NCBI GenBank assembly: GCA_009694725.1
Contig: SICV01000001.1
Location: 65,219-129,218 of the forward strand
Direction: 5' to 3'
Length of the DNA: 64,000 nucleotides
Origin: Candidatus Pacearchaeota archaeon
GTDB lineage: Archaea; Nanobdellota; Nanobdellia; Pacearchaeales; GW2011-AR1
The notes under the pieces are model-generated. The model saw only the letters and a program-made list of their open reading frames with translations, was not told the DNA's origin and ran no database searches. The translations under genes were made by a program, and so were the position numbers. Below are positions 10,254-58,212 of this stretch, in pieces (positions within the stretch are counted from its first letter, which is position 1; every line of letters begins with the position of its first letter).

Positions 10254-10259
10254 CTCGGA

Positions 10260-21621: not shown

Positions 21622-21844
21622 CTTTATATACCCTTAAATGGGTAGGGTATTCACTACTTCGCACTAGATTCACTTGCGGGCAAAGCTTTTTAAAGGATTT
21701 TGGATTCAACACTTTACTCTACTCATGCTGAGTAGTGGAGGTATGTTCCCTACGCATATCTCACGGTGGGCTCTTGAAGCCTTCTCGTTTGGGAGATCCT
21801 TCGGGATTACCACACTAAACAGTTGAAAGGGGGATTATATAAAT
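21622..21844 (+). promoter_or_regulatory. S-layer gene upstream region: TATA-like boxes, structured leader, Shine-Dalgarno
   Basis: CTTTATATACC at 21622-21632 and GCTTTTTAAAGG at 21685-21696. Hairpins at 21719-21735 (7-bp stem) and 21795-21808 (UUCG loop). AGGGGGA at 21828-21834, about 10 nt before ATG 21845. Confidence 0.4.
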
Positions 21845-31283: not shown

Positions 31284-31327
31284 GAGCAGAAAGGCAAAAG
31301 ACGAGTATAAAAAACTACTGAAAAAAT

Positions 31328-31399
31328 GGGGATGCCCGGATTTGAACCGGGGTCGCGAAGTCCCAAACCTCGAATGTTACCAGGCTGCACCACATCCCC
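31328..31399 (-). tRNA. tRNA-Pro (anticodon UGG)
   Basis: Reverse complement folds as a cloverleaf: acceptor GGGGATG/CATCCCC, anticodon stem CGAGG/CTTCG with loop TTTGGGA, T-arm CCCGG-TTCAAAT-CCGGG, discriminator A. No encoded CCA. Confidence 0.85.
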
Positions 31400-41769: not shown

Positions 41770-41851
41770 GCCGACATGGGACAATGGCACTCCGCTTGTC
41801 TTGAGAACAAGTTTCCTTCGGGATTTCCCGGTTCGATTCCGGGTGTCGGCG
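41770..41851 (+). tRNA. tRNA-Ser (anticodon UGA), class II with long variable arm
   Basis: Acceptor GCCGACA/TGTCGGC, anticodon stem CTTGT/ACAAG with loop CTTGAGA, variable arm TCC-TTCG-GGA, T-arm CCCGG-TTCGATT-CCGGG, discriminator G. Followed by an oligo-T tract. Confidence 0.85.
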
Positions 41852-43315: not shown

Positions 43316-44020
43316 ATGACGTTTGTATTAGAATCAATTGCACGCAACGTAAAGGATGCAACTGTGCATGATGCATTCATCAAATATAGCAAAGGTACTT
43401 TTCGTCAGCGCTATTTGGTTCAATCTAAAAAAGGAAAAGAGGGTTGGACACTAAAAACGAGCGCCGATTATGTGAATAGCATTGTGCACGCAGGGCTTGA
43501 GCGGGCGTCGGGCAGTATTCGAGTCACCGGGGCAATTATTGCCACGTTTAAAGTTGCCGAACATGCAACCTTTCCCACTCAAGGTTTGAAACAATTTATG
43601 GGTATTAAACAAACCTTGGTTGATGATGATATTCCTGTTGCTCAACTACTTGACCTCATGCAAAAACAGCCTCGCGCATTTTATGCACTTTCGTTTTCAT
43701 TCCCAGGAGGAAGTATCAAGACTAAAGCAAAGGCCCCTAAGAGCGCAAAGCCTTCAACAAAGGAAACAACCGAAGTTAAACCTGATTTTTGTGTTTTGAA
43801 AACACTTGATGAATCCTTTGTCAATCATATTTTATTGGATGTACCTGCTGCAAAGTCAGTAACGTTGTCACATAGTGTCGTTATTACTGATATTGAACTT
43901 CCACAGAATATAGCTGATCCTGTGCAATTACGTGAACAATCAATTCGTGTTGGCTCTATGGTGCGGACGTGCGTTGCCGACGATGTAACGACAAAAAAAG
44001 AGTATCCGTTTCGAGCTTAA
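43316..44020 (+). CDS. hypothetical protein
   Basis: 234-aa ORF with a leaderless promoter (TTTTATAAA ends 22 nt before the ATG). No motif recognised. Confidence 0.4.
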   Translation: MTFVLESIARNVKDATVHDAFIKYSKGTFRQRYLVQSKKGKEGWTLKTSADYVNSIVHAGLERASGSIRVTGAIIATFKVAEHATFPTQGLKQFMGIKQTLVDDDIPVAQLLDLMQKQPRAFYALSFSFPGGSIKTKAKAPKSAKPSTKETTEVKPDFCVLKTLDESFVNHILLDVPAAKSVTLSHSVVITDIELPQNIADPVQLREQSIRVGSMVRTCVADDVTTKKEYPFRA

Positions 44021-44559
44021 TACTCAATTCCTTTCCGGGCAAGTTTCCCTTGATCATAGGGATGTTTTATTTTTTTGATTTCGGTGACAAGATCTGCGTG
44101 CTCAAATAGCCGGGGATAAGCAACATGTGAACCGGTGAGGATGAGTTCTTGATTGGATGGTTTCTCTATGATGAGCGTGAGAATGTCTGCTTCGGTGCAG
44201 AGCCCTAGTTGAATGGCGTAGAGGAATTCATCCGCAATAATGATATCGTAGGTGCCAAATGATGCGCGAATATGCGTGAGTGCTTCCTGAAATGAGGCCA
44301 GTGCGTCATTATTCGGCTTACCGATTATCCATTCACCGGATCCGAATCGGTTATATGAGAAGCCTGGGAACTGTGAGAGTGCCTTGAGTTCTCCCGGATG
44401 TTCTATTTCAGGGTCTCCTGCCCCGTTTTTCATGCATTGGACAAGATGCACGGTGTAGCCATTTCCGACTGCACGTAATGCCGTGCCTAACGCTGCAGTT
44501 GTTTTTCCTTTTCCATCACCCCAAAAGATGCTCACGTGACCAAGATGTGACTTATCCAT
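44017..44559 (-). CDS. cobA: cob(I)yrinic acid a,c-diamide / cob(I)alamin adenosyltransferase (CobA/CobO/BtuR type)
   Basis: GDGKGKTTAALGTALRAVGNGYTVHLVQCMK P-loop region and DEFLYAI are typical of CobA. Confidence 0.8.
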   Translation of the reverse strand: MDKSHLGHVSIFWGDGKGKTTAALGTALRAVGNGYTVHLVQCMKNGAGDPEIEHPGELKALSQFPGFSYNRFGSGEWIIGKPNNDALASFQEALTHIRASFGTYDIIIADEFLYAIQLGLCTEADILTLIIEKPSNQELILTGSHVAYPRLFEHADLVTEIKKIKHPYDQGKLARKGIEY

Positions 44560-44633
44560 GCTCTTTCTTTCTTCGTGAGATTAAGTATATTTATATAGTT
44601 GTTCTTCATAGGTATCTTATACTGAGTACCCTT

Positions 44634-44831
44634 ATGAATACCTCTATGAATCCCCATAATAAGAAAATATTAGATTTGATACATAGCGAAGAAATAGTCA
44701 CCACTTCTGAAATTGCTGGTAACTTGGACATTTCTTGGAATACTGCAGATAGTTATCTTAAGGATCTTGCTCTCGATAATAAATTACGTCGAATCAAAAA
44801 AGAAGGAGTTACCTTATGGCTCAAAAAATGA
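44634..44831 (+). CDS. small winged-helix DNA-binding protein, first gene of the giant-protein cassette
   Basis: About 65 aa: ...KKILDLIHSEEIVTTSEIAGNLDISWNTADSYLKDLALDNKLRRIKKEGVTLW (HTH plus wing). Its 3' end overlaps the next gene by 16 nt. The start could be 44646. Confidence 0.5.
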   Translation: MNTSMNPHNKKILDLIHSEEIVTTSEIAGNLDISWNTADSYLKDLALDNKLRRIKKEGVTLWLKK

Positions 44832-45574
44832 GAGGACAAGTTATTATTTGGGTGTTTGTAGCATTGGGAGTAACTGCTTTTTTTGTGTTGTTATTCAGTA
44901 TTAAAACAACCCCTCAACAACAAGTCGTTACTGTTGATGATCCGGTAAGTTATATGCAGACCTGTGTGCGTACAGCGATTGTTAATGCACTTGAGGCCCG
45001 TCTCCCTCGAGGAGGCATTGTGGATAGTGGTATTTCAGTTATGTACAATAACATTTCTCGTACCTATTTATGTTATACTCGGGGATTATTTGAACCGTGT
45101 AGTATGCACCATCCTCTTCCCCTTGAAACGCTGACGTTACAACTGACAGAAGAAACTCGCCCGCTTGTAGAAACCTGCTTTGGTGATTTGCAAGAAACGC
45201 TTGAATTGACGGGAAAAGAAACTTTGATGCAATCCTTGACCTATTCTGTATCGTTTGCTCCTGACTCATTATTTGTTACTATTATTCGTCCCTTCTCGAT
45301 ACAAGATCGGGGCATATCTCGAGACTATGAAGACTTTAGTTTTACTATGAAAACTCCAACGTATCAACTCATGGATGTCGCTCGAGAAATTGCAAGTCAA
45401 GAAGCCCAATTTTGTTATTTTGAATACGCGGGTTATATGATTTTGTATCCGACATTTGAAATTGAGAAAAAAACCATCTTTGATGGTATCAAATTGTACA
45501 CGGTACGTGATGTGCCGTCGAATCAAGCACTTACTTTTGCAACACGTGGATGCGTGTTGCCGGCGGGACTCTAA
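44816..45574 (+). CDS. prepilin-like (class III signal) accessory protein A, paralogue of 49619-50392
   Basis: N-terminus MAQKMRGQVIIWVFVALGVTAFFVLLF. Alignable with paralogue B (for example KLYTVRDVPSNQALTFATRGCVLPAG vs RVYRVKNVITQESFQFASRSLVFPPG). Confidence 0.5.
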   Translation: MAQKMRGQVIIWVFVALGVTAFFVLLFSIKTTPQQQVVTVDDPVSYMQTCVRTAIVNALEARLPRGGIVDSGISVMYNNISRTYLCYTRGLFEPCSMHHPLPLETLTLQLTEETRPLVETCFGDLQETLELTGKETLMQSLTYSVSFAPDSLFVTIIRPFSIQDRGISRDYEDFSFTMKTPTYQLMDVAREIASQEAQFCYFEYAGYMILYPTFEIEKKTIFDGIKLYTVRDVPSNQALTFATRGCVLPAGL

Positions 45575-48500
45575 TGAATAGACGACAACCGATCGCATTC
45601 GGGGAACTATTCTTACTGATTAGTATGAGTTTTGCGTTTGCCTGGATTATGCATGAATCCCTTCCTTCGGATACTTCTTCAGTACTTCCTTCTTCTTCAG
45701 CTTCTGTTTCTCAGGTTGGGATGCTTCTTGCACTTCTTGGAAATATGCTGTTTGGAGATACCACGGTAAGCGCTGTTGTTCCCGGTGTGTGGACCTGTCC
45801 GCTTATGAAAGATGGGAGCGTGTGTCAAGAATTGAATAGTGATACGTGCGCGACGTATTGTACCACGTCCTGTATTCCTGCCCGCAAGCAAGATGTACAA
45901 CAATGTAAGCTGGGCACGTGCTTTTCCCCAAACACCGGAGGATGTAGTGCCGGAACTCCTCGAGATACCTGTACGGTTGTAGGTGGGCAATGGTTTGATG
46001 CTCCTCGAGAAAATGTATTGCAATGCCGCTTAGGGTGCTGTCTCACGGGACAACAAGCCTCCTTTACGACGGAACAAGCCTGTCTCCGGCAAGCACAAAC
46101 GTTAGGAACTGAAAAACTATTTCGACCTGAAGTATCCACTGAACTTTCCTGTCTTGCACTTGCCGGGAGCGCAGTCGAGGGCGCCTGTTTATTGGGTACT
46201 GATGATGACGGAAAACGTATCTGTTTATTTGGGACGCGTGAATCCTGTCAGACGCGACAGGGCACCTTCCAGGAAGGATGGTTATGTTCTGCTCCTTCCC
46301 TAAATACGAGTTGTCAGGCTCAACAACGTACGGGTTGTTCAGCGGGAAAAGAAGAAGTGTATTGGTACGATAGTTGTGGGAATCGAGAAAATATTTATGC
46401 GTTGCCTAAAGCGACCAGTTTCAACACTGGGCGCGTGCAACCAAAGGGGGCATCGTGTACGCTCACCCAGCAATTGACGAATGCCGGTACGTGTGGAAAT
46501 TGTAATTATTTACAAGGGAGTATGTGTAAACGCGCTCCAGGTGTTGCAAGCTTAGGAGATTTTGCCTGTCAGGATTTGAAGTGCACTGATCGATGGGGAA
46601 ACAAACACGAACCGGGAGAAAGTTGGTGTGCCTATCAAGGCTCGACGGGTGTTGATCAAAATCGGGGGACTGATACTCCTGGCAGTCGACACTTCCGTGA
46701 GACCTGCGTCAATGGAGAAGTCCAGCAAGATGCGTGCCAAGATTATCGTAATGAACTATGTGTCCAAACCACGACCGGTACGGGTGCTCAACGCTATACC
46801 GCTGCTGCCTGTCGTTTGAATCGATGGGCAGAATGTGTAGCGTATAATAATCCTCAAAAACCGGATGAAAAAATAAAGTGTAGTCAGAATCCCGATTGTC
46901 TGGTGAAACAAGTTTCTGTTGGTCAATTCGCCTTTAACCTCTGTACTCCCAAGTATGCGCCGGGATTTGATTTGACTGAAAATGGACGAGGGGAAGGGTC
47001 TGAAGCACTGTGTTCTATGGGAAGTCAGAAATGTACCAAAGTAATGGTAAAGAAACTAGGGGGATGGAAGTGTCAAGCAAATTGTCAGTGTGATAGCGCA
47101 TTATTCACGGAACAGATGAATAACCTCTGTACGAGTATGGGCGATTGCGGAATGAAAGCTAACTATTTGGGAACCACCTCGGATAGTTATCGGGTGACAG
47201 GTGCTCCTGCACTTGGAGCAAGTTACAAAGCAGGCATGCAACGGTATGCTGATGAACGTTTGTTCAAAGACAAACCTGCACTTGCGGGGAGTCTTGCTGA
47301 ATTCTATGCTCTTACCGGCGTGCCTGCAGGCTTAGGCTTCGGTATGGATCCAACTGATCCTACCTCTGGTACACGCGGTGCTTTGAGCATGCCGATTGGT
47401 ATGGCTGGATTGGCTGTAAGTTATATGGCAATTAGTACCGGGGTCGGCTATAGTGTTGGCTCAACTCTTGGTATCTCTACATATGCAAGTGCAAGTGGAT
47501 TGACTGCTGCTGGAGGTGCGCTCATGGGGGCAACGATTGGATTTGCACTGGTGAGTTTCTTGCTTGATTTCACCGGAGTAGGACGAGGATTACCTGCTGA
47601 ACTTACCTATGGCCTCATGGCTGCAGGGGCTGTCGCAGGAGCGGTGATGGGTATGAGTTATGCTGCTGGAACGGGAGTAACCGGATCATTCTCCGCACTT
47701 GGAGCAAGCGGGTTGTCAACTCTTGCAGGAGCTGCTGCTGCTGCCTTTGTGGTTATTGTAGTTGTCATTATCATTATCGTTGTTATGGCTCTCCTAGGTA
47801 TCGGGAAAGTCAAAAAGATTGAATCTACATTTACCTGTAAGCCTTGGCAAGCTCCGACGGGAAGTAGTGCGTGTGGGACCTGCGGGAGCGATGGATTCCC
47901 GTGTAGTGCGTATGCGTGTTCTGCGCTGGGACAAAATTGTCAGCTCATTAATGAAGCAACGGATGAACCAGAATGTGTTGCGATTAGCAGGGATGATGTG
48001 GTTCCACCGGTGATACAACCGTTGACGGGAGTTATTAGTGTGGGACATCAGTATAGTGCAGTGGGACCTTTGGGATTCAAACTGACGGGACCTGAAGAAT
48101 GTTTAGAACCCTTTAGTCAGCTTATTTTTGGACTTGGCTTGAATGAACCGGGGCAGTGTAAGTATAGCACCTCTCCTTCTGATAGTTTTGCGCAAATGAG
48201 TGCCGACTTTGGATTCAGTTCGTTATTCCGACGCAATCATACGATGATTTTGCCGGTACCGAGTATTGAGGCTTTGGGGTATACTGGCTATCAAACTAAC
48301 TTCACGGCAAGTCAAACGTTGTATGTTCGATGCCAGGATAAAAATGGGAATGTGAACAATGCAGGCTATGCAATCAACTTCTGTGTGCGACGAGGATTAG
48401 ATGTTACCCCTGCCGTTGTAGTAGCTAAAACTCCCGCCTGGGACTACGTCGGCTTCTTGGCAACGCAACAGAATGTAACGCTCTATACCAATGAGCCTGC

Positions 48501-49452
48501 AACCTGTCGCCTGAGTGATCGTGCTCAAGCCTATGATGTGATGACGCAGGAATTAACCTGTTTGAATGATCCAGTTGAAGATACTCCTGCCTTATTTGGC
48601 TGGGCATGTAACACAACGGTAAATCTGCTTGCACGGAATGATTCTACCTTTTATACGCTCTGCAAAGATCAGCCTTGGTTGATTGGAAAAAATGTATCTA
48701 TCTATCGGGTGAATAACACGAATTACACCTTTAATGCCGACGCGGTGAATATGACGTTCTTACAAGGGATAAGTACACGATCAGGGACTCCGCTTGCTCT
48801 TGTCCAGACCATTCCTGAAGCGGTGTTGACGAACATCACGGGAAATGGTACCACGAAACGGATTCAGACTCGAAATCTCATGCAGCAAGCCTATCCGTTT
48901 ACCATTCGGAAGAGTGTTGCACCGTTACGTATTGATGAACTCCAACCATATGGAACGCTCGCGTTTGGCGTTATGCCTGCTTCGGTGTCGGTTATTGCAC
49001 GTACGGGTGGCGGGCTTGATGGAACCGCTACCTGCCGGTATCAGTTTGGCGGGCAATGGATTGATTTCCGAGACACCCTTGGGCTCGTGCATCGCCAGAC
49101 TCTTTCGTTGTTTAACGGAACGCATACGTTCCCGATTCGCTGTGAAGATCAAGCTGGAAACATCGCTGGCAGTAGTGTGACGTTTACCATCCGTGCAGAT
49201 ACAACGATGCCCCTCATAACTCGGGCGTATGGCTCGGGTAGCACGTTGACCGTGGTTACGAATGAACCGGCGACCTGTAAAGCGAGCACACGTGGATGTC
49301 AAGATGCCTGGATCAATGGGACTGCTTTGAGTGGGACTGATCGAGCCCATACGTTCTCCTGGGAACGAAAATTTACCTATTATCTCCAGTGTACGGATCA
49401 GTATTTGAATGGGCCGGGAAGCCAGTGTCAAGCAATAGTGAGGCACCAATGA
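45574..49452 (+). CDS. giant Cys-rich membrane/surface protein, fused form (N Cys-rich module, Gly/Ala hydrophobic module, C beta-sandwich repeat module)
   Basis: About 1290 aa. Start chosen at the TAATG junction with the upstream gene (alternative ATG at 45550). Signal-anchor FGELFLLISMSFAFAW. Module content is described in the findings. Confidence 0.7.
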   Translation: MNRRQPIAFGELFLLISMSFAFAWIMHESLPSDTSSVLPSSSASVSQVGMLLALLGNMLFGDTTVSAVVPGVWTCPLMKDGSVCQELNSDTCATYCTTSCIPARKQDVQQCKLGTCFSPNTGGCSAGTPRDTCTVVGGQWFDAPRENVLQCRLGCCLTGQQASFTTEQACLRQAQTLGTEKLFRPEVSTELSCLALAGSAVEGACLLGTDDDGKRICLFGTRESCQTRQGTFQEGWLCSAPSLNTSCQAQQRTGCSAGKEEVYWYDSCGNRENIYALPKATSFNTGRVQPKGASCTLTQQLTNAGTCGNCNYLQGSMCKRAPGVASLGDFACQDLKCTDRWGNKHEPGESWCAYQGSTGVDQNRGTDTPGSRHFRETCVNGEVQQDACQDYRNELCVQTTTGTGAQRYTAAACRLNRWAECVAYNNPQKPDEKIKCSQNPDCLVKQVSVGQFAFNLCTPKYAPGFDLTENGRGEGSEALCSMGSQKCTKVMVKKLGGWKCQANCQCDSALFTEQMNNLCTSMGDCGMKANYLGTTSDSYRVTGAPALGASYKAGMQRYADERLFKDKPALAGSLAEFYALTGVPAGLGFGMDPTDPTSGTRGALSMPIGMAGLAVSYMAISTGVGYSVGSTLGISTYASASGLTAAGGALMGATIGFALVSFLLDFTGVGRGLPAELTYGLMAAGAVAGAVMGMSYAAGTGVTGSFSALGASGLSTLAGAAAAAFVVIVVVIIIIVVMALLGIGKVKKIESTFTCKPWQAPTGSSACGTCGSDGFPCSAYACSALGQNCQLINEATDEPECVAISRDDVVPPVIQPLTGVISVGHQYSAVGPLGFKLTGPEECLEPFSQLIFGLGLNEPGQCKYSTSPSDSFAQMSADFGFSSLFRRNHTMILPVPSIEALGYTGYQTNFTASQTLYVRCQDKNGNVNNAGYAINFCVRRGLDVTPAVVVAKTPAWDYVGFLATQQNVTLYTNEPATCRLSDRAQAYDVMTQELTCLNDPVEDTPALFGWACNTTVNLLARNDSTFYTLCKDQPWLIGKNVSIYRVNNTNYTFNADAVNMTFLQGISTRSGTPLALVQTIPEAVLTNITGNGTTKRIQTRNLMQQAYPFTIRKSVAPLRIDELQPYGTLAFGVMPASVSVIARTGGGLDGTATCRYQFGGQWIDFRDTLGLVHRQTLSLFNGTHTFPIRCEDQAGNIAGSSVTFTIRADTTMPLITRAYGSGSTLTVVTNEPATCKASTRGCQDAWINGTALSGTDRAHTFSWERKFTYYLQCTDQYLNGPGSQCQAIVRHQ

Positions 49453-49618
49453 GTAATCTGAGAAACAATCGCATTGAACGTAGGTATCTCAGGTATTCCT
49501 TTGTATCTTTTCTAGCTGAAGCCCCCTTGTTCAATGTATTTCAAGTGAATAAGCCTATCTACTCTAGGAAAGTACCTGCATGAAAACCATTATAAACATC
49601 CGACGTGATGAGGAGAGT

Positions 49619-50392
49619 ATGGAGAGAGGGATACGTACACGAGGACAAGTTACCTTTTTTGTACTAGTTGCAGTTGTGTTGGTAGGTGTTATTATTGCGC
49701 TCATTGCGATTCCTCGGTTACGCGGACCGAGTGTTGATGCAGTACAAGATCCCTCTGCCTTTTTACGCGCCTGTATCCAACCTACGTTAGAGGCTCGGTT
49801 GGCAACGCTGAGTGAGCAGGGAGGTTATCTCACTCCTGAAGGGTTTATTGAATATAATGGGACTAAAGTAAAATATCTCTGCCATGCAAGCGAAGATTAT
49901 GCAACATGCACTGTGCAACAACCGCTGATTAAAGAACATGTGGAAGAAGAACTAACCAATGCATTACAGGGAACAGCACGACAATGTGTGCAAGATTTGA
50001 AAGATGCGTTCCAGAGTGCTGGCTATAGCGTGGGAGGGAACTTTGAACGGTTCACGTTTTCATTTATCCCGGGAAACATGGTTGCGGTTATTGAAGCTCC
50101 GCTGACGTTAGAGAAACAAGGACGACGAACGTACACGCAATTCCAACTCACGTTCCCGAGTGAATATTATGATGTACTCTATCTGGTCACCAGCATTATT
50201 GAATATGAATCCCAAGTGGGCAATTCTGAAACATCTTTATATGTCCAGTATTACCCCGATATTAGTATGGATAAGATAACCTTGGGAGATGGCACTCGTG
50301 TGTATCGAGTGAAGAATGTAATCACTCAAGAATCCTTCCAATTCGCCTCTCGCAGTTTGGTGTTCCCACCAGGATATGGGTTTGAGCGATGA
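49619..50392 (+). CDS. prepilin-like (class III signal) accessory protein B
   Basis: N-terminus MERGIRTRGQVTFFVLVAVVLVGVIIALIAI (alternative upstream ATG at 49580). Paralogue of 44816-45574. Confidence 0.5.
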   Translation: MERGIRTRGQVTFFVLVAVVLVGVIIALIAIPRLRGPSVDAVQDPSAFLRACIQPTLEARLATLSEQGGYLTPEGFIEYNGTKVKYLCHASEDYATCTVQQPLIKEHVEEELTNALQGTARQCVQDLKDAFQSAGYSVGGNFERFTFSFIPGNMVAVIEAPLTLEKQGRRTYTQFQLTFPSEYYDVLYLVTSIIEYESQVGNSETSLYVQYYPDISMDKITLGDGTRVYRVKNVITQESFQFASRSLVFPPGYGFER

Positions 50393-51858
50393 AGTTCCTG
50401 TTTGCTTTGTTCATAAGCGTCGTTCTTCTTGGACTGGTGGGTGCAGCTGAACAAACCGTGTGTTGTGAAAAAACAACCTCTGGCCTCTATTGTCAGCAAG
50501 TGCAGCCAACACAGTGCGCTTCGGGAAGCAAGCAAGCTCCGACCTCCTGTGAGTCAACGAGTTTCTGTAAACCGGGCGTATGTTATGGTACTGCTGAAGG
50601 GACGTGTATGGAAAATACACCCCAAGTTGCCTGTAACGCACAAAATGCCAGTTGGTCTGCAACGTTCCCTGCCCAATGTACCTTAGGGTGTTGTGTGTTA
50701 GGAGATCAAGCGGCATTTGTCTCCTTGCCTCGGTGTAAACGCCTTGCAGGTTTCTTTGGTATCCCTGTTACGTATAATCGCGGGGTGACCAATGAGGTGC
50801 AATGTGTCTTGAGTGTACAAAATCAAGATAAAGGAGCATGTGTGTATGAACAAGAATTTGAAAAGACCTGTCGATTTACAACACGTGCATTATGTTCTTC
50901 GGGTGCAAATAATACAGGACAAGGTACTTTCTATAAAGACAAGCTCTGCACCGCTCCTGAACTTGCCACGAATTGTGCCAAGACACAGAAAACAGCCTGT
51001 GTCGATGGGAAAGATGAAGTGTATTTTGTGGATAGTTGTGGGAATGCGGCAAATGTATATGATGCGGGCAAAGCACAAGACGTTGAATACTGGACAAACA
51101 TAAAAACTCCTGAACAAAGTTGTAATCCTACTGGTGCAAATGCGGGGAGTCGCACGTGTGGCAATTGTGAATATTTGTTAGGAAGCATCTGTCGGAAAGC
51201 GAGTAAAGCAGATACGCCTGCGATGGGCGAGAATATTTGTACGAATTTGAATTGTGCTACTACCAGTAATGGGAAAGCGTATAAACATGGGGAAAGTTGG
51301 TGTGTGAATACGGATGCGGGTAAAACGGCAGTGAGTAAGAATAGTGTGGGCAGTCGCTTCTACAAGCATCTCTGTATTAACGGAGAAGAAAAAGTAGAAG
51401 GGTGTGCCGATTATCGCCAGGAAGAATGTATCCAAGATGTGATTAAAACAACCGCGGGAGAATTCTCTCAGGCAGCCTGCCGTGTGAACCGGTGGCAAGA
51501 TTGTACGACCCAGACTGATAAGGACGCTTGCCAGAATCGTGATCGACGAGACTGTGCCTGGAAACCAGGTGTTGCAGCTAATCCTGATGCGTGCGTTCCG
51601 TTGAATGCTCCTGGCTTGCAATTCTGGCAAGGAGAACAAACCAAAGAAATTTGCGGGAAAGCATCAGCAACCTGTACAGTCACCTTTGAGAAGGGCGCCT
51701 TTGGGGGAGAAGAATGTAAGCAGAACTGTGAATGCCTCACCGGACAATGGCTCCAACGGAGAAATGAGTTATGTAATGCGCTGGGCGATTGTGGTCCCAA
51801 TATTAATTGGTTTAATCAGAAGGGTTACACTGACGGGTATAAAGTAGTTGGACCGTAA
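50389..51858 (+). CDS. secreted Cys-rich protein, stand-alone paralogue of the N-module of the giant protein
   Basis: Sec signal MKFLFALFISVVLLGLVGAAEQ. Collinear conserved Cys blocks with 45574-49452 (DSCGN, TCGNCxYLxGSxC, GESWC, CRxNRW, LGDCG). ATGA overlap with accessory B. Confidence 0.7.
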   Translation: MKFLFALFISVVLLGLVGAAEQTVCCEKTTSGLYCQQVQPTQCASGSKQAPTSCESTSFCKPGVCYGTAEGTCMENTPQVACNAQNASWSATFPAQCTLGCCVLGDQAAFVSLPRCKRLAGFFGIPVTYNRGVTNEVQCVLSVQNQDKGACVYEQEFEKTCRFTTRALCSSGANNTGQGTFYKDKLCTAPELATNCAKTQKTACVDGKDEVYFVDSCGNAANVYDAGKAQDVEYWTNIKTPEQSCNPTGANAGSRTCGNCEYLLGSICRKASKADTPAMGENICTNLNCATTSNGKAYKHGESWCVNTDAGKTAVSKNSVGSRFYKHLCINGEEKVEGCADYRQEECIQDVIKTTAGEFSQAACRVNRWQDCTTQTDKDACQNRDRRDCAWKPGVAANPDACVPLNAPGLQFWQGEQTKEICGKASATCTVTFEKGAFGGEECKQNCECLTGQWLQRRNELCNALGDCGPNINWFNQKGYTDGYKVVGP

Positions 51859-51912
51859 GTAAGTTATTTGTATCGCCTGTATCTTTTTAATCCCTTAACG
51901 CATCTACCCTCT

Positions 51913-52584
51913 ATGCGTTCTCATTCTCTCGCATTGGTCGGTGCAGGACTTGTAGGACTTGCTTCATTGAGCGAGGGTTCACTTTCTCGCCCTTCATTTC
52001 TTGAACCTCTTTCCCGAGCAATGATGCCTGCTCTTTCTGGCCCGCTCGCCTATTGTGCTGGATGTGATTCAATCCATGGTCCAGAAGGGGAGGGAAGTAC
52101 TCGCTATGAACTTGTTACCGGATTTGCTGACTTGACTTCGGTTCAATCCCTCTTTACTGATATGCAAGATGAAGTAAAGAATCTTGAAACGATTGCGGTA
52201 ACAGGGGTCACGGTACGACAGCGTGAGAGTGATGATAGCGTGAAATTGCATCCAGAAGATCCCGTGTATCCTGGACAGACACCTGGTGACTCCTATAGGG
52301 GTACTTCGTTTATCTTGTTTTATATTGACCTTGCTAACCATCCGTCGACTTTTACGTTACAGATTGCACGTGACGGGACAAACATGTACTCGCAAGACTT
52401 TGATCTTGCGACTTCTCCCGCTCGTAGGGGTTTTCTTCTGTTCAGCCCTCAAGAACTTGCACCTCGCGAGTATCGATTACATGGTCCTGCCAAGTATACG
52501 ATTGAAACAATAGTGGATGACGATGAAGATCCGGGTTCTTCTCGCACTGAGCAAACCATGGAATTCTTTATTGAACATAAATAG
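51913..52584 (+). CDS. secreted hypothetical protein
   Basis: Signal-like MRSHSLALVGAGLVGLASLS. TATA-like box ends 22 nt before the ATG. The ORF track starts at TTG 51868. Confidence 0.4.
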   Translation: MRSHSLALVGAGLVGLASLSEGSLSRPSFLEPLSRAMMPALSGPLAYCAGCDSIHGPEGEGSTRYELVTGFADLTSVQSLFTDMQDEVKNLETIAVTGVTVRQRESDDSVKLHPEDPVYPGQTPGDSYRGTSFILFYIDLANHPSTFTLQIARDGTNMYSQDFDLATSPARRGFLLFSPQELAPREYRLHGPAKYTIETIVDDDEDPGSSRTEQTMEFFIEHK

Positions 52585-52592
52585 GGAGAAGA

Positions 52593-53807
52593 TTATTTTT
52601 CTTCCCCTAATAATTTTAAATTTTCAGCAAGTGTTTCTGGCCTATTGTTTTTTTCGCCTCTCCGAATATTTCTTATCACGAAGTTTTTTAGAAGAGCATA
52701 TCTTAAAAGATAAAGAACGTATTCCTTTTCTTCTTCTTTGATCGGAAATTTAGAATGCACATTATAACCTTGAGTAATCGCCTTAAAACTACTTTTAAGG
52801 TATAGGGGCGGTGCCATATTTCTGCCAAATAATAAGGGGGACTCAAAATCAACAACTCTCCTTGAAAACCTAAGCAACTCTAAATCTATGAATTTTAACC
52901 CTGTAGATGTCAAAATTACATTAGACTGATTTAAATCTCCATGAATGTAAGCTTCATCTAAAAAATCACGCCTTACATCAAAACCTGCACTCATTATTCT
53001 TTTTGTTTCTGGCAGAAAAGAATCGTGGCCGTTAACTGCAAGGTCGATATTAATTGCGATCAAATTGCTTGCACTTGAATGGCTGCATTCAGATAAAAAA
53101 GTATTTTGTAATCCTCTCCTTTCTATCGCGCCACTTAATTCTCGATGCATTCTTGCAATTTTTCCTCCAAGTTCAAAATAATAAGATAAGCTTCTTTCCT
53201 TAATTGGTTCACCTATAACATATTCTTCTAAACCATAAAAACCATCACTTAAACAAACGAATCTTTCTCCTGATGTCGTTTTTTTGCCTGTTGGGAAAAA
53301 AGAAGGCAGTTCTTGAACTACTTCAAATAACGCCTTTGCTCTTGCTGTTTTTGTTCCTAAATTTTTAAGAACAAATTCCCCTTCCTTACTAAGAACATGA
53401 AACAATCCTTCTTTTCTAATGCTCCCTTTAATAGGGGTTAAGTGTATATTAGTTAAACCATAAGATTGAGCCAAAATATCTTCAAGCATCGAGGTGTTTT
53501 TTTTCTCTAAATTTTCTCTTGCAAAAACTTGAGAAGGTGTATGATATATTATTTTTTTGCCTTTTAGTAAACTTATTCCTAATTCTGACATGCTCTGACT
53601 TTCAATAGGAAAAACTTGAGTGGTACCTTTATAAAAAATAGTGAACGAATTAGTCGAGTTAGAAACCGTCGTTTTTTCTTTATCTGAAATAACCACGTTA
53701 TTCATGCATCTTCCTGAAAAAGTAATTTCTCCTGTAACATATCCAAAATTATTGCCTTCTCGATAAAATTTTATTTCTTCTGGGAAAAAAATTGTTGAAT
53801 TGAGCAT
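52593..53807 (-). CDS. protein-kinase-like fold phosphotransferase (APH/choline-kinase family)
   Basis: Catalytic segment YIHGDLNQSNVILT...KFIDLE (HGDxxxxN...IDxE) is typical of aminoglycoside/small-molecule kinases. AT-rich gene. Confidence 0.6.
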   Translation of the reverse strand: MLNSTIFFPEEIKFYREGNNFGYVTGEITFSGRCMNNVVISDKEKTTVSNSTNSFTIFYKGTTQVFPIESQSMSELGISLLKGKKIIYHTPSQVFARENLEKKNTSMLEDILAQSYGLTNIHLTPIKGSIRKEGLFHVLSKEGEFVLKNLGTKTARAKALFEVVQELPSFFPTGKKTTSGERFVCLSDGFYGLEEYVIGEPIKERSLSYYFELGGKIARMHRELSGAIERRGLQNTFLSECSHSSASNLIAINIDLAVNGHDSFLPETKRIMSAGFDVRRDFLDEAYIHGDLNQSNVILTSTGLKFIDLELLRFSRRVVDFESPLLFGRNMAPPLYLKSSFKAITQGYNVHSKFPIKEEEKEYVLYLLRYALLKNFVIRNIRRGEKNNRPETLAENLKLLGEEK

Positions 53808-53906
53808 AAAAATGAGTTTGTCCCCATTATTTAAATATGTCTATTAACATTAATTATTCTTCGTTCTTTCAGCTTATTTTAAATACTATAAAACAATCTC
53901 TAAAGT

Positions 53907-54458
53907 ATGGATATTACTTTTATTCGTCATGCAGAGAAAGAACTAGGTGAAGGAGATTTATCTCTCTCTGAAAATGGGAAGAAACAAGCAAAAAACCTTG
54001 CTAAACGTTTAAAGGGGGAACATTTTGATGAATTTTACTGTAGTGAACTATTGCGTTCACGTGAAACTTCTCAATTAGTTTCAGAAACTATTAATCTTGA
54101 CCCGATAATAGTGCCTTCACTTAATGAATTTGAACCCTCTCTTTTAAAAATAGATCAAGAAATTTGGGGTGAAAAAGAAACTAAACAATATCAAGCACTA
54201 TGTTCTTTTCTTGCTAACTTTAATAAACGAGGAGATGAAAAAAAGCGCGTCCTAATTATTGCACATGGAAATACTAATAGACTTATACTTACAATATTGC
54301 TCGAATTAAACTTAAAAAATATCATTAGATTTAGATTGCTTGAAACAGGAATAAGTGAAGTTTATTGGATGCCGAAATTTAAAAATTGGAGAATGAAATA
54401 TTGGAACGATGTTTCTCATCAACCTAAGGAACTAGTTGAAGGCATCAACAAATATTAA
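53907..54458 (+). CDS. histidine phosphatase family protein (phosphoglycerate mutase-like)
   Basis: ITFIRHAEKE (RHG-type motif), SELLRSRET and IIAHGNTNR (second catalytic His). Confidence 0.75.
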   Translation: MDITFIRHAEKELGEGDLSLSENGKKQAKNLAKRLKGEHFDEFYCSELLRSRETSQLVSETINLDPIIVPSLNEFEPSLLKIDQEIWGEKETKQYQALCSFLANFNKRGDEKKRVLIIAHGNTNRLILTILLELNLKNIIRFRLLETGISEVYWMPKFKNWRMKYWNDVSHQPKELVEGINKY

Positions 54459-55273
54459 GAAATCGCAAGATTATAATAATTGACAAAGGAATTGAAAATT
54501 TTCTTGCTTGAAGTTAAGGTTGTTTCCTTATTTTCTTTAAGTTTAGATACTTTTTTCTGTATATCTTTAACATTTTTTGAGAAGCAAATAAACCCAATAT
54601 ATTTAGAAGCTTCAAAAATTCTTGAAAGAATTTTCCTTTTCCTCGTTTCTGACGATAGCTCATTTCTTATATCTTTCAAGTAATATCGATTATAAGCATT
54701 AAACAATAAATCATAGATTTGAGCAGGGCAATTTTTTAAAAAGATTATTTTATTCTCTTTAAAATCTACCCCCTTAATTGGCAAATGTCTCCAAGGCAAA
54801 GAAATGGAAGTTCGATTAATAATCGCCCTCTGAAAGCATTTATCGAATGGAGCAAATTTATCTATAATTCCTTTTGAGAGATTTTCTTCTCCTTTAATGG
54901 AAACTCCAACAGAATAGGCCTTATTTTTTATTTTTATTTCTTTTTTTATGTTTTGAAAGGTATTACCTTTAATAATTACTAGAAAATCGTAATCTTCATT
55001 ATTTTCTGAATGAAGTCCTGATCCAAAGACTGAGATGCTTTTAATTTTAGTACCTCCTCTTTCCTTTAAGAGTTGCTTTTCAATTATGTTTGCTAAATTG
55101 TTAAAAATTTTCCACCTTTTCTCTAAAATTTTATTCTTCTTGCCATTAATTTGATAATACAAATTTCTCTTAAATAGTCTCTTTCTTTCTACTTTTTTTC
55201 TAAAATTAATTTTATTTTTTTCAAATAGATCTAATGGAAAACCTACATCAAATTGAACAGGTTTAATTTTCAT
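54455..55273 (-). CDS. nucleotidyltransferase-domain protein (Pol-beta superfamily)
   Basis: SVFGSGLHSENNEDYDFLVII matches the GS...DxD minimal nucleotidyltransferase signature. Very AT-rich, Lys/Asn/Ile-rich protein. Confidence 0.55.
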   Translation of the reverse strand: MKIKPVQFDVGFPLDLFEKNKINFRKKVERKRLFKRNLYYQINGKKNKILEKRWKIFNNLANIIEKQLLKERGGTKIKSISVFGSGLHSENNEDYDFLVIIKGNTFQNIKKEIKIKNKAYSVGVSIKGEENLSKGIIDKFAPFDKCFQRAIINRTSISLPWRHLPIKGVDFKENKIIFLKNCPAQIYDLLFNAYNRYYLKDIRNELSSETRKRKILSRIFEASKYIGFICFSKNVKDIQKKVSKLKENKETTLTSSKKIFNSFVNYYNLAIS

Positions 55274-55396
55274 GTAACATAGAGCATAAACCTATTTTTA
55301 TTTATTTCTATTAATCTTAATAAAAATCCTCTTTTTTAACTACTTTCAAGTTACGGCTTACCGAAAGATATAAAAGGACATTCACCATGGAGGATT

Positions 55397-55969
55397 GTGC
55401 ACCAAAGTCTTGAAAAACGGTTGCGAGGTGGTCTTCTAGCTGTTAGTATCGGTGTTGGTTCTTTGTTGGGAAGTGGGTGTGCAACGAATAATCCTGCTCT
55501 CAATGCGTTTATGAATTATGGTGTTGCTCCGATTCTTGCCGCTGATGCGGGACGAAGTCAACAAACAGTGATTGTGAATGCTCCCGGTGCTTCTGCTCAA
55601 GACCCTCAGGACTACCTTCCCAAAGATTATGCTCGGGGACCGTGGGCGCTCTACGCTGCAGGTTATTGTGATGAAAATACGGTACGAAGTGCAAAGGACA
55701 TTCGTAACACCTTCACGGAAGGGGAAACCTTCTATGTATTGGGGAAAGGTCCCGGCACACGTTATCTTCGTCTTGAAGTGAGTGATGAGCAGGGAAAGCA
55801 AGTGGCAGCAAAAGAAATTGATATTCGGTCTGGACCCACCAACATCGCACGGGATGGTGGCTTTCTTCGTATTCTCGGAGGGACAATTCCCCCAGGTGCA
55901 TACACTATTAAAATGTTTGACGGTCGTGGATTAAATTCACAAGGCAGCTTCAAAGTCATCTCTCGCTAA
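55397..55969 (+). CDS. putative lipoprotein / small secreted beta-rich protein
   Basis: GTG start 21 nt after AGATATAAAAGG. Signal with a lipobox-like LLGSGC. Confidence 0.45.
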   Translation: MHQSLEKRLRGGLLAVSIGVGSLLGSGCATNNPALNAFMNYGVAPILAADAGRSQQTVIVNAPGASAQDPQDYLPKDYARGPWALYAAGYCDENTVRSAKDIRNTFTEGETFYVLGKGPGTRYLRLEVSDEQGKQVAAKEIDIRSGPTNIARDGGFLRILGGTIPPGAYTIKMFDGRGLNSQGSFKVISR

Positions 55970-56028
55970 TTTTTTCTCCCGCTTTTCCGTCGCAGAACGT
56001 TTATAAATCTCTGAACGTATGGATCCTC

Positions 56029-58212
56029 ATGTTCAAAAAGAGGGACGCACATATTCTATTAACATCTTTCTTTCAGATGTATCTTATCCTTTCCCTTACC
56101 ATTATTTCTTCTGCATTAGTATCTTCTATTGTTCCCCCGCCAGTTACCAATACTCCTGCAGGGGGATATATGGAATTATTAAGCAGAACAGCAGGAGGAC
56201 AAACATTTGCGAATACTGTTCCGGGACAGGTTTTTAGTGCGGGTAAAGCAATTCCTCCAGGTACGATTTTACAACCGGGCAGTGCAATTCAAGGAGGAAC
56301 ACTTGGGGGGGATAGTGTTGGCTATACTTTAGCTGGAGAACCCGTTGGTCCAAATGTCTATGCTGCTGAAGGCCAAGGAGCAACTGCGGTTTCAACGTCA
56401 ACGACTGCATCTGCCACAGGGGCACTGGTACAAGGATTATTTTGGGGAGTAGCCCTTTACGCAGGTATCAAAATGCTGGGGGGAATGTTGGGATTAGGTA
56501 AAGGTACGACGGATGCATTGGCAAATGCTGCGCTTGTTGGAGGAATTGCAGGGGGGGCTACAAAGGCAGCCATTTTATATTTTAGACCTGAAACCACTGC
56601 AGCTTCACAAGTCAATTTCTTAAGTGGGTCGTTCACGCCAGGACAACTGGGCTTTGGTGCGGGTGTAGTGATTGCAGTCATTATCTTCTTAGTCAAGTAT
56701 AAAGATACTAAGACGAAAGTGGTATCGTATCAATGCCTGCCATGGGAACCTGCGCTCGGAGGGGCGAATTGTGGGGAATGTAATAAGAATTCTTTCCAGC
56801 CGTGTTCTGAGTATCGGTGCAAGTCACTGGGACAGGCATGTGAGTTGGTAAATCCGGGGACGTCTGAGGAGAAATGTATCTGGAAGAGCAAGCAAGATGT
56901 AACGTCTCCGACCATTACTCCCTGGGAAGATGCGTTACGTCCTACTGGATTGCGGTATGTGCCTTTGGAAACGCGTCCGAATGCTCGAGGAACGCGTATT
57001 GTGAGTGCGAATGGAGATTGTCTTGATGCGTTTACACCCTTGGAATTTGGGATTACGACGAATGAACAAGCCCAGTGTAAGATTGATTTTAGAAATGGCA
57101 ATTTGAGCACCATGCAATTCTTCTTTGGGGGCAGTAATTATTTTGTGACCAACCATACGCAACGGATGAAGTTGCCTTCGGGGACTGCGGATGGACTCAC
57201 CTTACAAAACGATGGGACGTTTGATTTGTATGTGAAGTGTCAGGATGCGAATGGGAATACCAATGAGGATGTCTATGTGATTGAATATTGTGTGAAAAAG
57301 GGTCCGGACACTACTCCTCCCGTGATTGTCGATACGTCCATTACCTCGGGTAGTCCCGTACGATTTGGAGCAAATGCAGTACCTCTTGAAGTGTACACGC
57401 AGGAACCTGCGCAGTGTAAGTGGAGTCGGACCAGTAAGCCGTATGATGACATGGAAAATCGCTTTACGTGCGCCTCCTCACCTACCCAATTGAATGGAGA
57501 CTTGAGTTACACGTGTGCGGGGAATATGACTGGTGTGTTGGATCGTGCGGAAAATCAATTCTATCTCCGATGCCAAGATTATGCTAACAATACGATGGCT
57601 CAAAGCTATCCGTTTGTACTGAAGGGAAGTCAACCGTTAACGATTCTCGAAACGAGTCCAAATGGGACATTGTATGGGGCAACGACTACCGTGCCGGTGA
57701 CCTTGGGCGTGAAAACGGATGCGGGAGCTGAAGCAGGGAAGGCCTCCTGTTATTATAGCGCACCGACGACGTTAGGTGAGCCTATTAAGTTCTTCACCAC
57801 CGAGAGCTTTACCCATAGCCAACAAGTAGATGTCACGGCAGGATTCCATCAGTACTCATTACTCTGCGTTGATGCAGGAGGGAATACTGTTAATCAGACG
57901 CTTAACTTCACGATGGTAATTGACCAGCAAGCCCCTCGTGTTACGCGTGTCTATCGTGAAGAAGCATTGAAAGTGGTGACAAATGAAGCAGCTGAGTGTA
58001 CCTATTCATTACAAGGATGTACTTTTGGGATTGATGATGGCCTCAAGATGCAATACATTCGACCTGATGTCCAGAATCAACACTTTGTGGATTGGAAGTC
58101 ATCCCTGACCTATTATGTGAAGTGCGTTGATAAGTATGGGAATCAACCTGATCCCGGGGAATGTTCAGTCGTGGTAAGTCCGAAGCAGTTTGTGAATGCG
58201 ACGAATATCTAG
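56029..58212 (+). CDS. membrane protein, stand-alone paralogue of the hydrophobic and C-modules of the giant protein
   Basis: Own signal-anchor (ILLTSFFQMYLILSLTIISSAL). Gly/Ala-rich hydrophobic region. Then YQCLPWEPALGGANCGECNKNSFQPCSEYRCKSLGQACELVN aligns with FTCKPWQAPTGSSACGTCGSDGFPCSAYACSALGQNCQLIN, followed by four repeat units. Confidence 0.7.
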   Translation: MFKKRDAHILLTSFFQMYLILSLTIISSALVSSIVPPPVTNTPAGGYMELLSRTAGGQTFANTVPGQVFSAGKAIPPGTILQPGSAIQGGTLGGDSVGYTLAGEPVGPNVYAAEGQGATAVSTSTTASATGALVQGLFWGVALYAGIKMLGGMLGLGKGTTDALANAALVGGIAGGATKAAILYFRPETTAASQVNFLSGSFTPGQLGFGAGVVIAVIIFLVKYKDTKTKVVSYQCLPWEPALGGANCGECNKNSFQPCSEYRCKSLGQACELVNPGTSEEKCIWKSKQDVTSPTITPWEDALRPTGLRYVPLETRPNARGTRIVSANGDCLDAFTPLEFGITTNEQAQCKIDFRNGNLSTMQFFFGGSNYFVTNHTQRMKLPSGTADGLTLQNDGTFDLYVKCQDANGNTNEDVYVIEYCVKKGPDTTPPVIVDTSITSGSPVRFGANAVPLEVYTQEPAQCKWSRTSKPYDDMENRFTCASSPTQLNGDLSYTCAGNMTGVLDRAENQFYLRCQDYANNTMAQSYPFVLKGSQPLTILETSPNGTLYGATTTVPVTLGVKTDAGAEAGKASCYYSAPTTLGEPIKFFTTESFTHSQQVDVTAGFHQYSLLCVDAGGNTVNQTLNFTMVIDQQAPRVTRVYREEALKVVTNEAAECTYSLQGCTFGIDDGLKMQYIRPDVQNQHFVDWKSSLTYYVKCVDKYGNQPDPGECSVVVSPKQFVNATNI

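Follow-up and report, generated by a model that had tools for sequence, protein, structure and literature searches.

Gene order and conservation of the operon

The window (the whole 64-kb stretch of archaeal DNA that was analysed) carries, at 44634-58212, an operon that is absent from existing annotation, all of its proteins bearing the NCBI label "hypothetical protein". It is a conserved chromosomal operon of Pacearchaeales and Woesearchaeales (DPANN archaea), and the duplicated two-gene unit described in a sequence-only reading of this DNA is its front half. Every ORF of that reading was found where it had been placed, and alignment identified the small proteins (A1 and A2) and the large proteins (B1 and B2) as true paralogues, so that the tandem duplication stands. 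The unit does not end at 51858, as had been proposed, but continues through lipoprotein-like genes to a third large paralogue, B3, all of which had been overlooked. Each of the three B genes has a gene for a small membrane-tethered partner upstream of it (A1, A2 and a lipoprotein-like gene, respectively). All genes of the operon discussed here lie on the plus strand.

The first gene encodes a 65-aa DNA-binding protein (44634-44831) that matched the Pfam model FaeA at 22.8 bits (cutoff 20.7) and HTH_24 at E = 3e-4 (20.6 bits; cutoff 21.9), as is characteristic of winged-helix (wHTH) transcription regulators. The AT-rich, TATA-like block that had been noted before it is present at 44581-44598 (read from the sequence), within a 75-nt divergent intergenic region between a CobA-like gene on the minus strand and the wHTH gene. 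The ATG at 44634 lies 36-53 nt downstream of this block, which by its position is a putative archaeal promoter. The stop codon of the wHTH gene overlaps the start of A1. The claim that a wHTH gene heads the cassette holds here and fails as a general rule: such a gene was present in approximately 30 of 76 loci, where the usual overlap with the A1 ORF was 16 nt, and other loci have an RHH or AbrB-like gene in the same overlapping position. The small head protein would control transcription of the operon. In different lineages, unrelated small regulators stand at the head of the same operon.

A survey of relatives for co-occurrence of A and B, as the sequence-only reading had proposed, found the gene pair to be conserved. 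The order A-B-A-B(-B), with the regulator first and a lipoprotein gene optional before the last B, was recovered at approximately 80 loci; the operon occurs in hundreds of Pacearchaeota and Woesearchaeota genomes, and a B relative is encoded in 331 GTDB species-level genomes, labelled almost entirely as Pacearchaeota, Woesearchaeota or Nanoarchaeota. In most loci the operon is single-copy. Its flanking synteny consists of housekeeping genes (AI-2E transporter, CobA-like, Hjc and AspRS), which argues that the locus is core and not mobile. The TAATG (A1-B1) and ATGA (A2-B2) junctions reported earlier are both present in the sequence; across relatives, an overlap of 4 or 1 nt was counted at 60 of 144 A-to-B junctions and a gap of 0-20 nt at a further 50 (110 of 144 tight overall), which supports tight coupling of each A gene to its B gene.

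Between B2 and B3, a gene at 51868-52584 (238 aa from a TTG; start uncertain) is conserved in the closest relatives only. Its C-terminal motif resembles that of the lipoprotein-like genes in the B2-B3 interval, an assignment that is weak because a lipobox is absent. A second gene, at 55397-55969 (190 aa), directly upstream of B3, encodes a lipoprotein-like protein with an h-region followed by LLGSGC. Across loci, an h-region followed by xxGC was found in 37 of 46 plus-strand ORFs between B2 and B3, 29 of the 46 forming one family (a phmmer cluster); the window copy at 55397-55969 is divergent and falls outside this cluster. A lipobox of the prokaryotic lipoprotein type is predicted from sequence in these ORFs, the window copy included.

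The A proteins and their N-termini

A1 (252 aa; 44816-45574; NCBI MSS74727.1) and A2 (257 aa; 49619-50392; NCBI MSS74729.1) align end to end (25% identity, E = 3e-29), in agreement with the earlier observation that the small proteins are alike along their full length. A1 may start at its second ATG (44828; MRGQ...), as do its closest homologues, and 49580 may be an alternative start for A2. A1 comprises a class III-signal-like N-terminus (MAQKMRG/QVIIW..., the slash marking the site), a disordered linker and an alpha/beta ectodomain. A2 carries the same R-G/Q site, and the A ectodomain has four invariant Cys.

The site was followed through 158 A-family ORFs, which are mutually 23-40% identical and nonetheless keep it: position +1 is Q in 158/158, position -1 is G in 136, A in 20 and S in 2, and position -2 is K or R in 143. 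Leaders are mostly 3-11 aa with start codons as predicted, and an uncharged run of on average approximately 22 residues follows the site. The family thus shows the marks of a class III signal, namely a basic residue at -2 with G or A at -1, and a short leader before approximately 20 hydrophobic residues in an N-terminal helix. Judged from sequence, the A N-termini fit a class III (prepilin) signal, and the suggestion made from two proteins is borne out across the family.

It is unlikely that the A N-termini are ordinary uncleaved signal anchors with no link to prepilin peptidases or type IV filament biology. The A fold, which is not pilin-like (below), agrees with such a role, as does the finding that Pfam searches of the approximately 55 ORFs of the window returned no prepilin (A24-family) peptidase. 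A signal anchor, however, gives no reason for Q at +1 in every ORF, a small residue at -1 in all 158 and mostly K or R at -2, which together form a prepilin-peptidase pattern and not that of a random signal anchor. Elsewhere in the window, at 18.8-21.1 kb, lie four pilin-like ORFs with KG/Q or RG/F sites, which suggests that the organism probably encodes a prepilin-type peptidase; unlike the A proteins, in which no acidic residue occurs near +2 to +6, these four have one at +2 to +6.

In an AF2 model of A (pLDDT 83), a transmembrane helix spans residues 6-29 and a disordered linker at residues 33-38 parts it from the alpha/beta domain. The continuous alpha-1 helix of pilins, packed on a beta-rich head, is absent from this model, and a Foldseek search against PDB returned nothing at E < 0.005, with TM-scores ≤ 0.16 and no pilin match.

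These results bear on the proposal that a pilin stalk carries a giant adhesin, in which A1 and A2 would be minor pilins polymerised by a type IV filament machine and the B adhesins would be presented on the stalk or pilus tip. Modular pilins and pilin-adhesin tip complexes are known from other systems, and in the minor-pilin/adhesin modules of type IV pili (PilY1-type tip adhesins, S. sanguinis PilB) prepilin-type N-termini are likewise linked to large adhesin-like proteins; the invariant class III-like site and the other pilin-like genes in the window also speak for such a role. However, B1 and B3, in contrast to the large proteins of those modules, are embedded in the membrane by segments of their own and so could not travel on a filament. 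The A proteins have a disordered linker between transmembrane helix and globular part, and they lack the pilin fold and the acidic residue. Nor does the operon, in contrast to those modules, include a gene for a filament ATPase or platform protein. Motif searches in the flanks of approximately 80 loci recovered neither a prepilin peptidase nor ArlI/PilB or ArlJ/PilC, Pfam gave no T2SSE or platform match in the window or in the annotations of loci L001 and L003, and a crude scan for Walker A plus RxxPD..GEIR motifs had no positives among 6879 ORFs from 83 loci; at the operon loci, the A proteins are accordingly not encoded with a type IV filament (TFF) ATPase and platform protein. Type IV filament systems of DPANN archaea have been reported (bioRxiv 10.64898/2026.04.22.720090). 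We consider a minor-pilin role for A1 and A2 improbable, and the stalk proposal received no specific support.

Domain architecture of the B proteins

B1 (1292 aa; 45574-49452) was divided into regions by alignment, hydropathy and modelling. A hydrophobic anchor at the N-terminus (residues 7-25) and, at residues 66-68, a conserved "VSA" motif precede a Cys-rich ectodomain shared with B2 (residues 75-545; 45796-47208), a Gly/Ala-rich membrane block (residues ~600-745; 47371-47808) and a Cys-knot plus Ig-like half shared with B3 (residues 749-1292; 47818-49449). Approximately 70 Cys are invariant across 39 B1 orthologues. Cys makes up 8.6% of the B N-domain and approximately 4% of the C-terminal half, against 0.7% of cytoplasmic controls from the window; this and the four invariant Cys of A support an extracytoplasmic character.

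B2 (489 aa; 50389-51858) is a paralogue of B1 that aligns over B1 residues 75-543 (33% identity, E = 7e-69) with its cysteines collinear, which confirmed the collinear Cys blocks noticed earlier in the large proteins. The description of both large partners as very large does not apply to it: B2 consists of a cleavable Sec-type signal peptide (..LVGA/AEQTVCCE) and, after it, the Cys-rich domain alone, and it has no membrane anchor. A truncation of B1 was considered and rejected, as relatives conserve B2 as a short paralogue of approximately 490-530 aa: essentially all loci with sufficient flank have an orthologue of 470-570 aa. These orthologues have Sec signal peptides with AxA sites immediately before VCCE, which supports export of the Cys-rich domain.

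The AF2 model of the B1 Cys-rich domain (pLDDT 88.2) consists of repeated beta-hairpin-plus-helix modules, and Foldseek found no match for it (best E = 0.6 in PDB and 0.1 in BFVD). N-glycosylation sequons are depleted in this domain (observed/expected 0.22). Neither A nor the Cys-rich domain of B matched a family in Pfam, NCBIfam, PHROG or PADLOC, a sequence profile of PDB or, by Foldseek, a structure in PDB or BFVD, in line with the earlier statement that no described family could be recognised.

The membrane block was delimited by hydropathy, using both single sequences and alignment columns. It contains the conserved segment GGALAGAAIGFAVTSLLI..TGIGxGL..TYxLxAAGAxxGA and its last element is a single, very hydrophobic helix, after which comes GIGKxKK. 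In B1 and B3, a K/R cluster stands after this strongest and last hydrophobic helix, which by the positive-inside rule would make the Ig-like half cytoplasmic and so leaves the topology ambiguous.

The C-terminal half of B1 contains an 8-Cys motif (CxPWQxPxGGxxCxxCGxDGxPCSxYACQSLGQTC) and about four predicted Ig-like domains; D-x-T-P-P domain boundaries and C-x-D-x-x-G-N strands, typical of such domains, are seen in this half of both B1 and B3. In B1 its sequon density is 1.36 per 100 aa; the composition-corrected observed/expected ratio of 1.30 is no greater than that of the cytoplasmic controls (13 sequons observed vs 10.1 expected). The third paralogue, B3 (727 aa; 56029-58212; NCBI MSS74736.1; B-family HMM E = 2e-139), combines the membrane block and the Cys-knot plus Ig-like half with a signal peptide or anchor and a Gly-rich region. 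The Cys-rich N-domain is missing from it, and its match to B1 is confined to the membrane block and Ig-like half (BLASTP against B1 residues 732-1289: 29% identity, E = 1e-63); it lies downstream of B2 in at least 34 loci. Big_13 was the sole family match of B1, in its C-terminal half (17.4 bits, below the cutoff of 27), and also matched B3 (19.5 bits, below the same cutoff). Among 35 B3-family members, 31 matched Big_13 weakly (best E = 1.2e-6) and 15 matched DUF4625, all of these matches being below Pfam gathering scores. On these sequence grounds the C-terminal half of B1 and B3 probably has an Ig-like fold. The repeated, weak matches liken it to the bacterial Ig-like adhesins of Big_13/DUF4625; in B1 and B3, unlike those families, the Ig-like domains share one chain with an 8-Cys motif and a Gly/Ala-rich membrane block.

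The conserved small-residue (GxxxG/A-type) segments in the membrane block of two paralogues could be read as an element that oligomerises into a pore or is fusion-active, forming a conduit or membrane-merging device between DPANN cells and their hosts. DPANN lifestyles depend on hosts, which is in keeping with such a device, but the Cys-rich domain is structurally unlike fusexins (fusexin/HAP2), viral fusion glycoproteins and translocators, the only translocator match (AopB, E = 0.59) was not significant, and the locus contains no energy or cargo-handling gene; we regard a pore or fusion device as quite unlikely.

It is very improbable that B1, B2 and B3 constitute an S-layer with the A proteins as anchors. 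The large-plus-small gene pairing and the lineage-wide core character of the locus speak for it, but the B proteins are 4-9% Cys and partly membrane-integral, unlike known S-layer proteins, and gave no S-layer Pfam match; a lattice protein would be expected to be soluble and Cys-poor. The likeness is to SlaA/SlaB of Sulfolobales, core envelope genes in which a large outer protein is co-transcribed with a smaller membrane-anchored partner; the differences are the lack of sequence or fold similarity, the extreme Cys content and the predicted polytopic nature of B1 and B3. A Ser/Thr-rich secreted protein of 878 aa at 21845-24481, with the only S_layer_C match in the window (weak; E = 0.0028), is a better S-layer candidate than the B proteins, and the report of S-layer genes among the top expressed in Woesearchaeota MAGs (PMC11606122) also counts against the B proteins in this role.

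A proposed cell-surface complex and its significance

The operon most likely encodes a cell-surface complex of pilin-style anchored proteins and Cys-rich proteins that match no known fold. We put at about even the chance that this complex is regulated, comprises several subunits, among them partners processed by the class III route, and sits on the outer face of the cell membrane. A class III signal (prepilin-type) peptidase would cut A1 and A2 after G/A, and both would remain anchored via their new N-terminal hydrophobic helix. Each A would be made in step with its own B partner and would bind the Cys-rich, unglycosylated domain of that partner, which would also tether B2, itself without an anchor. 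B1 and B3 would be held in the membrane by the Gly/Ala-rich block and would display their Ig-like domains outward. By analogy, a structural or adhesive role in contact with surfaces or partner cells appears likeliest; a function in cell-cell or host contact, as raised in the sequence-only reading, is speculative. Counting against the proposed complex are the A model, which is unlike a pilin, the missing acidic residue of A, the negative searches for a prepilin peptidase and filament genes in the window and in the flanks of approximately 80 loci, and, for the Ig-like half, the K/R cluster and the sequon ratio.

The substrate-binding proteins of the Sulfolobus "bindosome" resemble A in that a short basic leader with G/A at -1 leads into a hydrophobic helix and then a non-pilin globular domain, and in being encoded next to a functional membrane partner and not next to filament machinery (bioRxiv 10.64898/2026.04.22.720090). 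They differ in that the ectodomain of A has neither a solute-binding fold nor any known match, that class III cleavage of A is predicted, and that the partner of A is a Cys-rich surface protein instead of an ABC transporter. The A proteins would lengthen the list of non-pilin proteins that use a prepilin (class III) signal.

A further-reaching reading, which we hold to be doubtful, is that of a previously unrecognised envelope apparatus that defines the Pacearchaeales/Woesearchaeales lineage and serves as the physical interface with a partner or host cell. Two new folds would go into it, together with subunits processed by the class III route and a membrane block rich in small residues; that the interface would attach cells as a plaque, act as a conduit or be a site where membranes merge is similarly tentative.

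Among archaea not yet cultivated, Pacearchaeota and Woesearchaeota rank with the most widespread, and to our knowledge it is not known how they touch their surroundings or hosts. Hundreds of species have the operon, which is syntenic, entirely unannotated and mostly single-copy per locus, and it contributes two confidently predicted domains without a known structural relative (the A ectodomain and the B Cys-rich domain), which makes it a testable candidate for the cell-surface core of these lineages. Antibodies, proteomics, cryo-ET labelling and heterologous expression could all be directed at its proteins.

Paralogous gene pairs and the N-terminus of the A family

The sequence-only reading described a duplicated pair of genes headed by a small winged helix-turn-helix (wHTH) gene, and all five ORFs were recovered where it had placed them: the wHTH ORF (44634-44831), the small prepilin-like proteins A1 (44816-45574) and A2 (49619-50392), and the Cys-rich surface-type proteins B1 (45574-49452) and B2 (50389-51858). 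Both halves of the duplication were borne out. A1 and A2 can be aligned over their full length (25% identity; E=3e-29), and B2 (489 aa) aligns to residues 75-543 of B1 (1292 aa; 33% identity; E=7e-69) with cysteines that match one for one. A further paralogue, B3 (56029-58212; 727 aa; B-family HMM E=2e-139), aligns to residues 732-1289 of B1 (29% identity; E=1e-63), and B1 therefore consists of a B2-like half followed by a B3-like half. All of the cassette proteins are named “hypothetical protein” at NCBI (MSS74727-MSS74730 and MSS74736; Candidatus Pacearchaeota MAG).

To describe the A N-terminus, we collected 158 A-family ORFs of ≥200 aa. The motif x-[G/A/S]-Q, with no fewer than 18 uncharged residues among the next 20, was present in 158/158, with G (136), A (20) or S (2) at position -1, K or R at -2 in 143/158, and Q at +1 without exception. 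The prepilin-like N-terminus proposed earlier is seen in all of these ORFs, and -1 alternating between G and A after a basic residue at -2 has the look of a prepilin-type (class III) peptidase site. That these N-termini are instead plain, uncleaved signal anchors is unlikely, because such an anchor would not be expected to keep the site across proteins sharing no more than 23-40% identity. A-family clusters (50% identity) numbered 598 at E ≤ 1e-30 and 2366 at E ≤ 1e-10 in an exhaustive HMM search.

The AlphaFold2 (AF2) model of A (pLDDT 83) contains a helix (residues 6-29), a disordered linker (33-38) and an alpha/beta ectodomain with four invariant cysteines. Foldseek against the PDB gave a best E-value of 0.0056 with TM-scores ≤ 0.16, and there was no pilin or archaellin among the listed matches. 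Taken together, the conserved site and these matches suggest that A is a probable class III substrate and, as modeled, not a pilin by fold. The pilin-like character first attributed to A therefore holds for its N-terminus but not for its fold, and a model in which A forms the tip or stalk of a pilus is improbable. The prepilin peptidase and assembly genes to which the sequence-only reading had pointed did not turn up: A24 peptidase, secretion ATPase and platform protein were missing among the ~55 window ORFs scanned and from the precomputed Pfam annotation of two related loci (L001 and L003), and a crude motif scan of all loci compared, which covers loci and not whole genomes, returned neither an A24 peptidase nor a secretion ATPase.

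Four consecutive small pilin-like ORFs (18798-21127; N-termini MKG/QLELSF, RRG/FEFSF, MKG/QLKIQE and KRG/QEEIVG, with “/” marking the site) lie upstream of the gene for a secreted protein of 878 aa that is rich in Ser/Thr and sequons (21845-24481; weak S_layer_C match, E=0.0028), and the region (18798-24481) looks like a pilin-like cluster beside a probable S-layer gene. Given these four further class III-like ORFs, the organism probably uses class III processing. Type IV filament systems are reported in DPANN, as are widespread class III signals on non-pilin binding proteins encoded apart from filament machinery (2026 preprint, bioRxiv 10.64898/2026.04.22.720090); the top transcripts of Woesearchaeota include archaellin-type and S-layer genes (PMC11606122).

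Elsewhere, the window holds a large protein-glycosylation cluster (1176-14005) with an AglB/STT3-like 913-aa protein, GT2, GT4 and GT9 glycosyltransferases, Alg14/Alg13-like proteins, a flippase, a PMT_2 protein and an asparagine synthase. A 635-aa protein with CARDB, HYDIN-like Ig and Wzt_C-like domains and 9 sequons (27312-29219, minus strand) is probably another surface glycoprotein. ARAGORN called a tRNA-Ser(TGA) at 41770-41851, while the Rfam tRNA model at gathering threshold gave only tRNA-Pro (31327-31399).

Distribution, gene order and flanking genes

A word-indexed search for B1 returned more than 356 relatives of ~1250-1350 aa, all unnamed and all from sources labelled Pacearchaeota or Nanoarchaeota, and when GTDB species were scanned, each represented by one genome, 331 of the genomes encoded a B relative. 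Gene order was determined in 80 loci from the GTDB scan, nearly all labelled Pacearchaeota, Woesearchaeota, Nanoarchaeota or Nanoarchaeia, together with three obtained earlier, by calling ORFs and scoring them with A- and B-family HMMs. The order was ABABB in 34 of these 83 loci and ABAB in 28; the others were mostly interrupted by contig ends, and a few carried additional A-B unit copies. L061, L063, L073 and L083 carry an additional A-B unit or one more full-length B (ABABABB, ABBABB), which indicates that the A-B unit has been duplicated repeatedly. One Nanoarchaeota MAG has a GNAT acetyltransferase gene inserted between A1 and B1 (L003:9582-10004). Because the order A-B(~1250 aa)-A-B(~500 aa) is practically universal in the loci, B2 is, by comparison of sequences, a genuine short paralogue. 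Truncation or pseudogene status was rejected, since B2 orthologues, 470-570 aa long and each with a Sec signal peptide of its own, are universal.

B3 (700-990 aa) is the third paralogue in most loci with sufficient flank, and the interval between B2 and B3 holds one to three plus-strand genes in most loci. An N-terminal h-region with a lipobox-like xxGC after it was found in 37 of 46 such ORFs, and 29 of the 46 form one family, of which the window carries a divergent lipoprotein-like copy (55397-55969; LLGSGC). The same interval contains a low-GC (0.34-0.36) insertion of three genes in the window (52593-55273), encoding a 404-aa unknown protein, a histidine phosphatase and a 272-aa unknown protein. 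This block is lineage-specific and missing in nearly all relatives, and since the corresponding position in L001 is occupied by a glycosyltransferase cluster, the interval looks like an insertion hot spot.

The flanks are shared in ~30 loci and comprise an AI-2E transporter, a 234-aa unknown protein (43316-44020 in the window), a CobA-like gene and, downstream, Hjc and AspRS. Judged by this synteny, the cassette is part of the core chromosome rather than of a mobile element; mobile-element, viral or defence origin was ruled out by housekeeping flanks in conserved order and by the lack of any PHROG or PADLOC match for A or B. The CobA/CobO/BtuR-family P-loop gene (44017-44559, minus strand), a corrinoid adenosyltransferase-like gene, is surprising in genomes so reduced. 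The window also encodes a 709-aa class II Asp/Asn-type tRNA synthetase with a C-terminal HD domain (59892-62021, minus strand), of which the L003 homologue has 500 aa.

The gene at the head of the operon proved to be a winged-helix protein in the window, as proposed (65 aa, 44634-44831; FaeA 22.8 bits, cutoff 20.7; HTH_24 E=3e-4; AT-rich block ahead of it at 44581-44598), but among 76 loci the small gene that runs into the A1 start encodes a wHTH in only ~30. A CopG-type RHH (RHH_1 21.9-23.1 bits, cutoff 20.5) replaces it in at least 19 of the 76, a second RHH-like type in 4 and an AbrB/MazE-like gene in 2 (examples upstream of A1: L001:9115-9258, L005, L011 and L014). The closest relative of the window (B1 77% identity) carries an RHH instead of the wHTH. 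A dedicated small regulator is therefore conserved in the operon and its protein family not, a case of non-orthologous displacement, by lineage, at a constant place in the operon.

Domains and predicted topology of the B proteins

Approximately 70 invariant cysteines are common to 39 B1 orthologues. B2 orthologues begin with a classic Sec signal peptide whose AxA end stands immediately ahead of VCCE, so the Cys-rich domain is predicted to be exported; at the corresponding position, B1 has a “VSA” motif. In the AF2 model of B1 residues 66-560 (pLDDT 88.2), this domain consists of repeated beta-hairpin-plus-helix Cys modules, and Foldseek found no neighbour in the PDB (best E=0.6) or BFVD (best E=0.1). 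Sequence profiles built from the A and B alignments likewise matched nothing significantly in the PDB (HIV gp120, LolC and AopB at E ≥ 0.2). The sequence-only reading recognised no described family or system of this architecture, and A and the B Cys-rich domain had no match in the PHROG, PADLOC and PDB profile and structure searches.

The B1 halves are separated by a Gly/Ala-rich block with two or three conserved segments of moderate hydrophobicity and a single very hydrophobic helix, after which comes GIGKxKK. In B1 and B3 alike, the C-terminal half starts with an 8-Cys motif and continues with approximately four Ig-like domains; B3-family proteins show weak Big_13 (31/35) and DUF4625 (15/35) matches, all under gathering score. 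Hydropathy leaves the number of spans ambiguous, even or odd, and the K/R cluster after the very hydrophobic helix would imply, by the positive-inside rule, a cytoplasmic Ig-like half. Against this, the half contains 4% Cys (0.7% in cytoplasmic controls), is Ig-like in character and has three times the sequon density of those controls (1.36 versus 0.46 per 100 aa), although its composition-corrected (shuffled) ratio of 1.30 is not above theirs. On the Cys content, Ig-like character and raw density, we lean towards a location outside the cell membrane. In the Cys-rich domain, sequons are far rarer than expected (observed/expected 0.22). A pore or fusion device, to which such a membrane block might belong, is very unlikely.

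A candidate surface complex

The best-supported reading of the operon is a regulated, multi-subunit extracytoplasmic complex. [quoted passage not shown] That B forms the S-layer is scarcely credible, the 878-aa protein at 21845-24481 appearing the better candidate. We file the locus as a candidate archaeal surface complex with prepilin-type anchoring.

Several ingredients are of kinds already known: a non-pilin protein with a class III signal, surface domains of Ig-like type, a lipoprotein and a small regulator. For the two main domains no relative could be detected, and an operon of this architecture is undescribed in the searched libraries and literature; publications on cysteine-rich, pilin or surface proteins of DPANN, Pacearchaeota and Woesearchaeota gave no description of the cassette. 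That this amounts to a genuinely new apparatus of the envelope or of host contact is doubtful, if conceivable. Uncharacterized surface proteins are common in DPANN genomes, and this locus is worth attention as one that is conserved, abundant, unannotated and testable.
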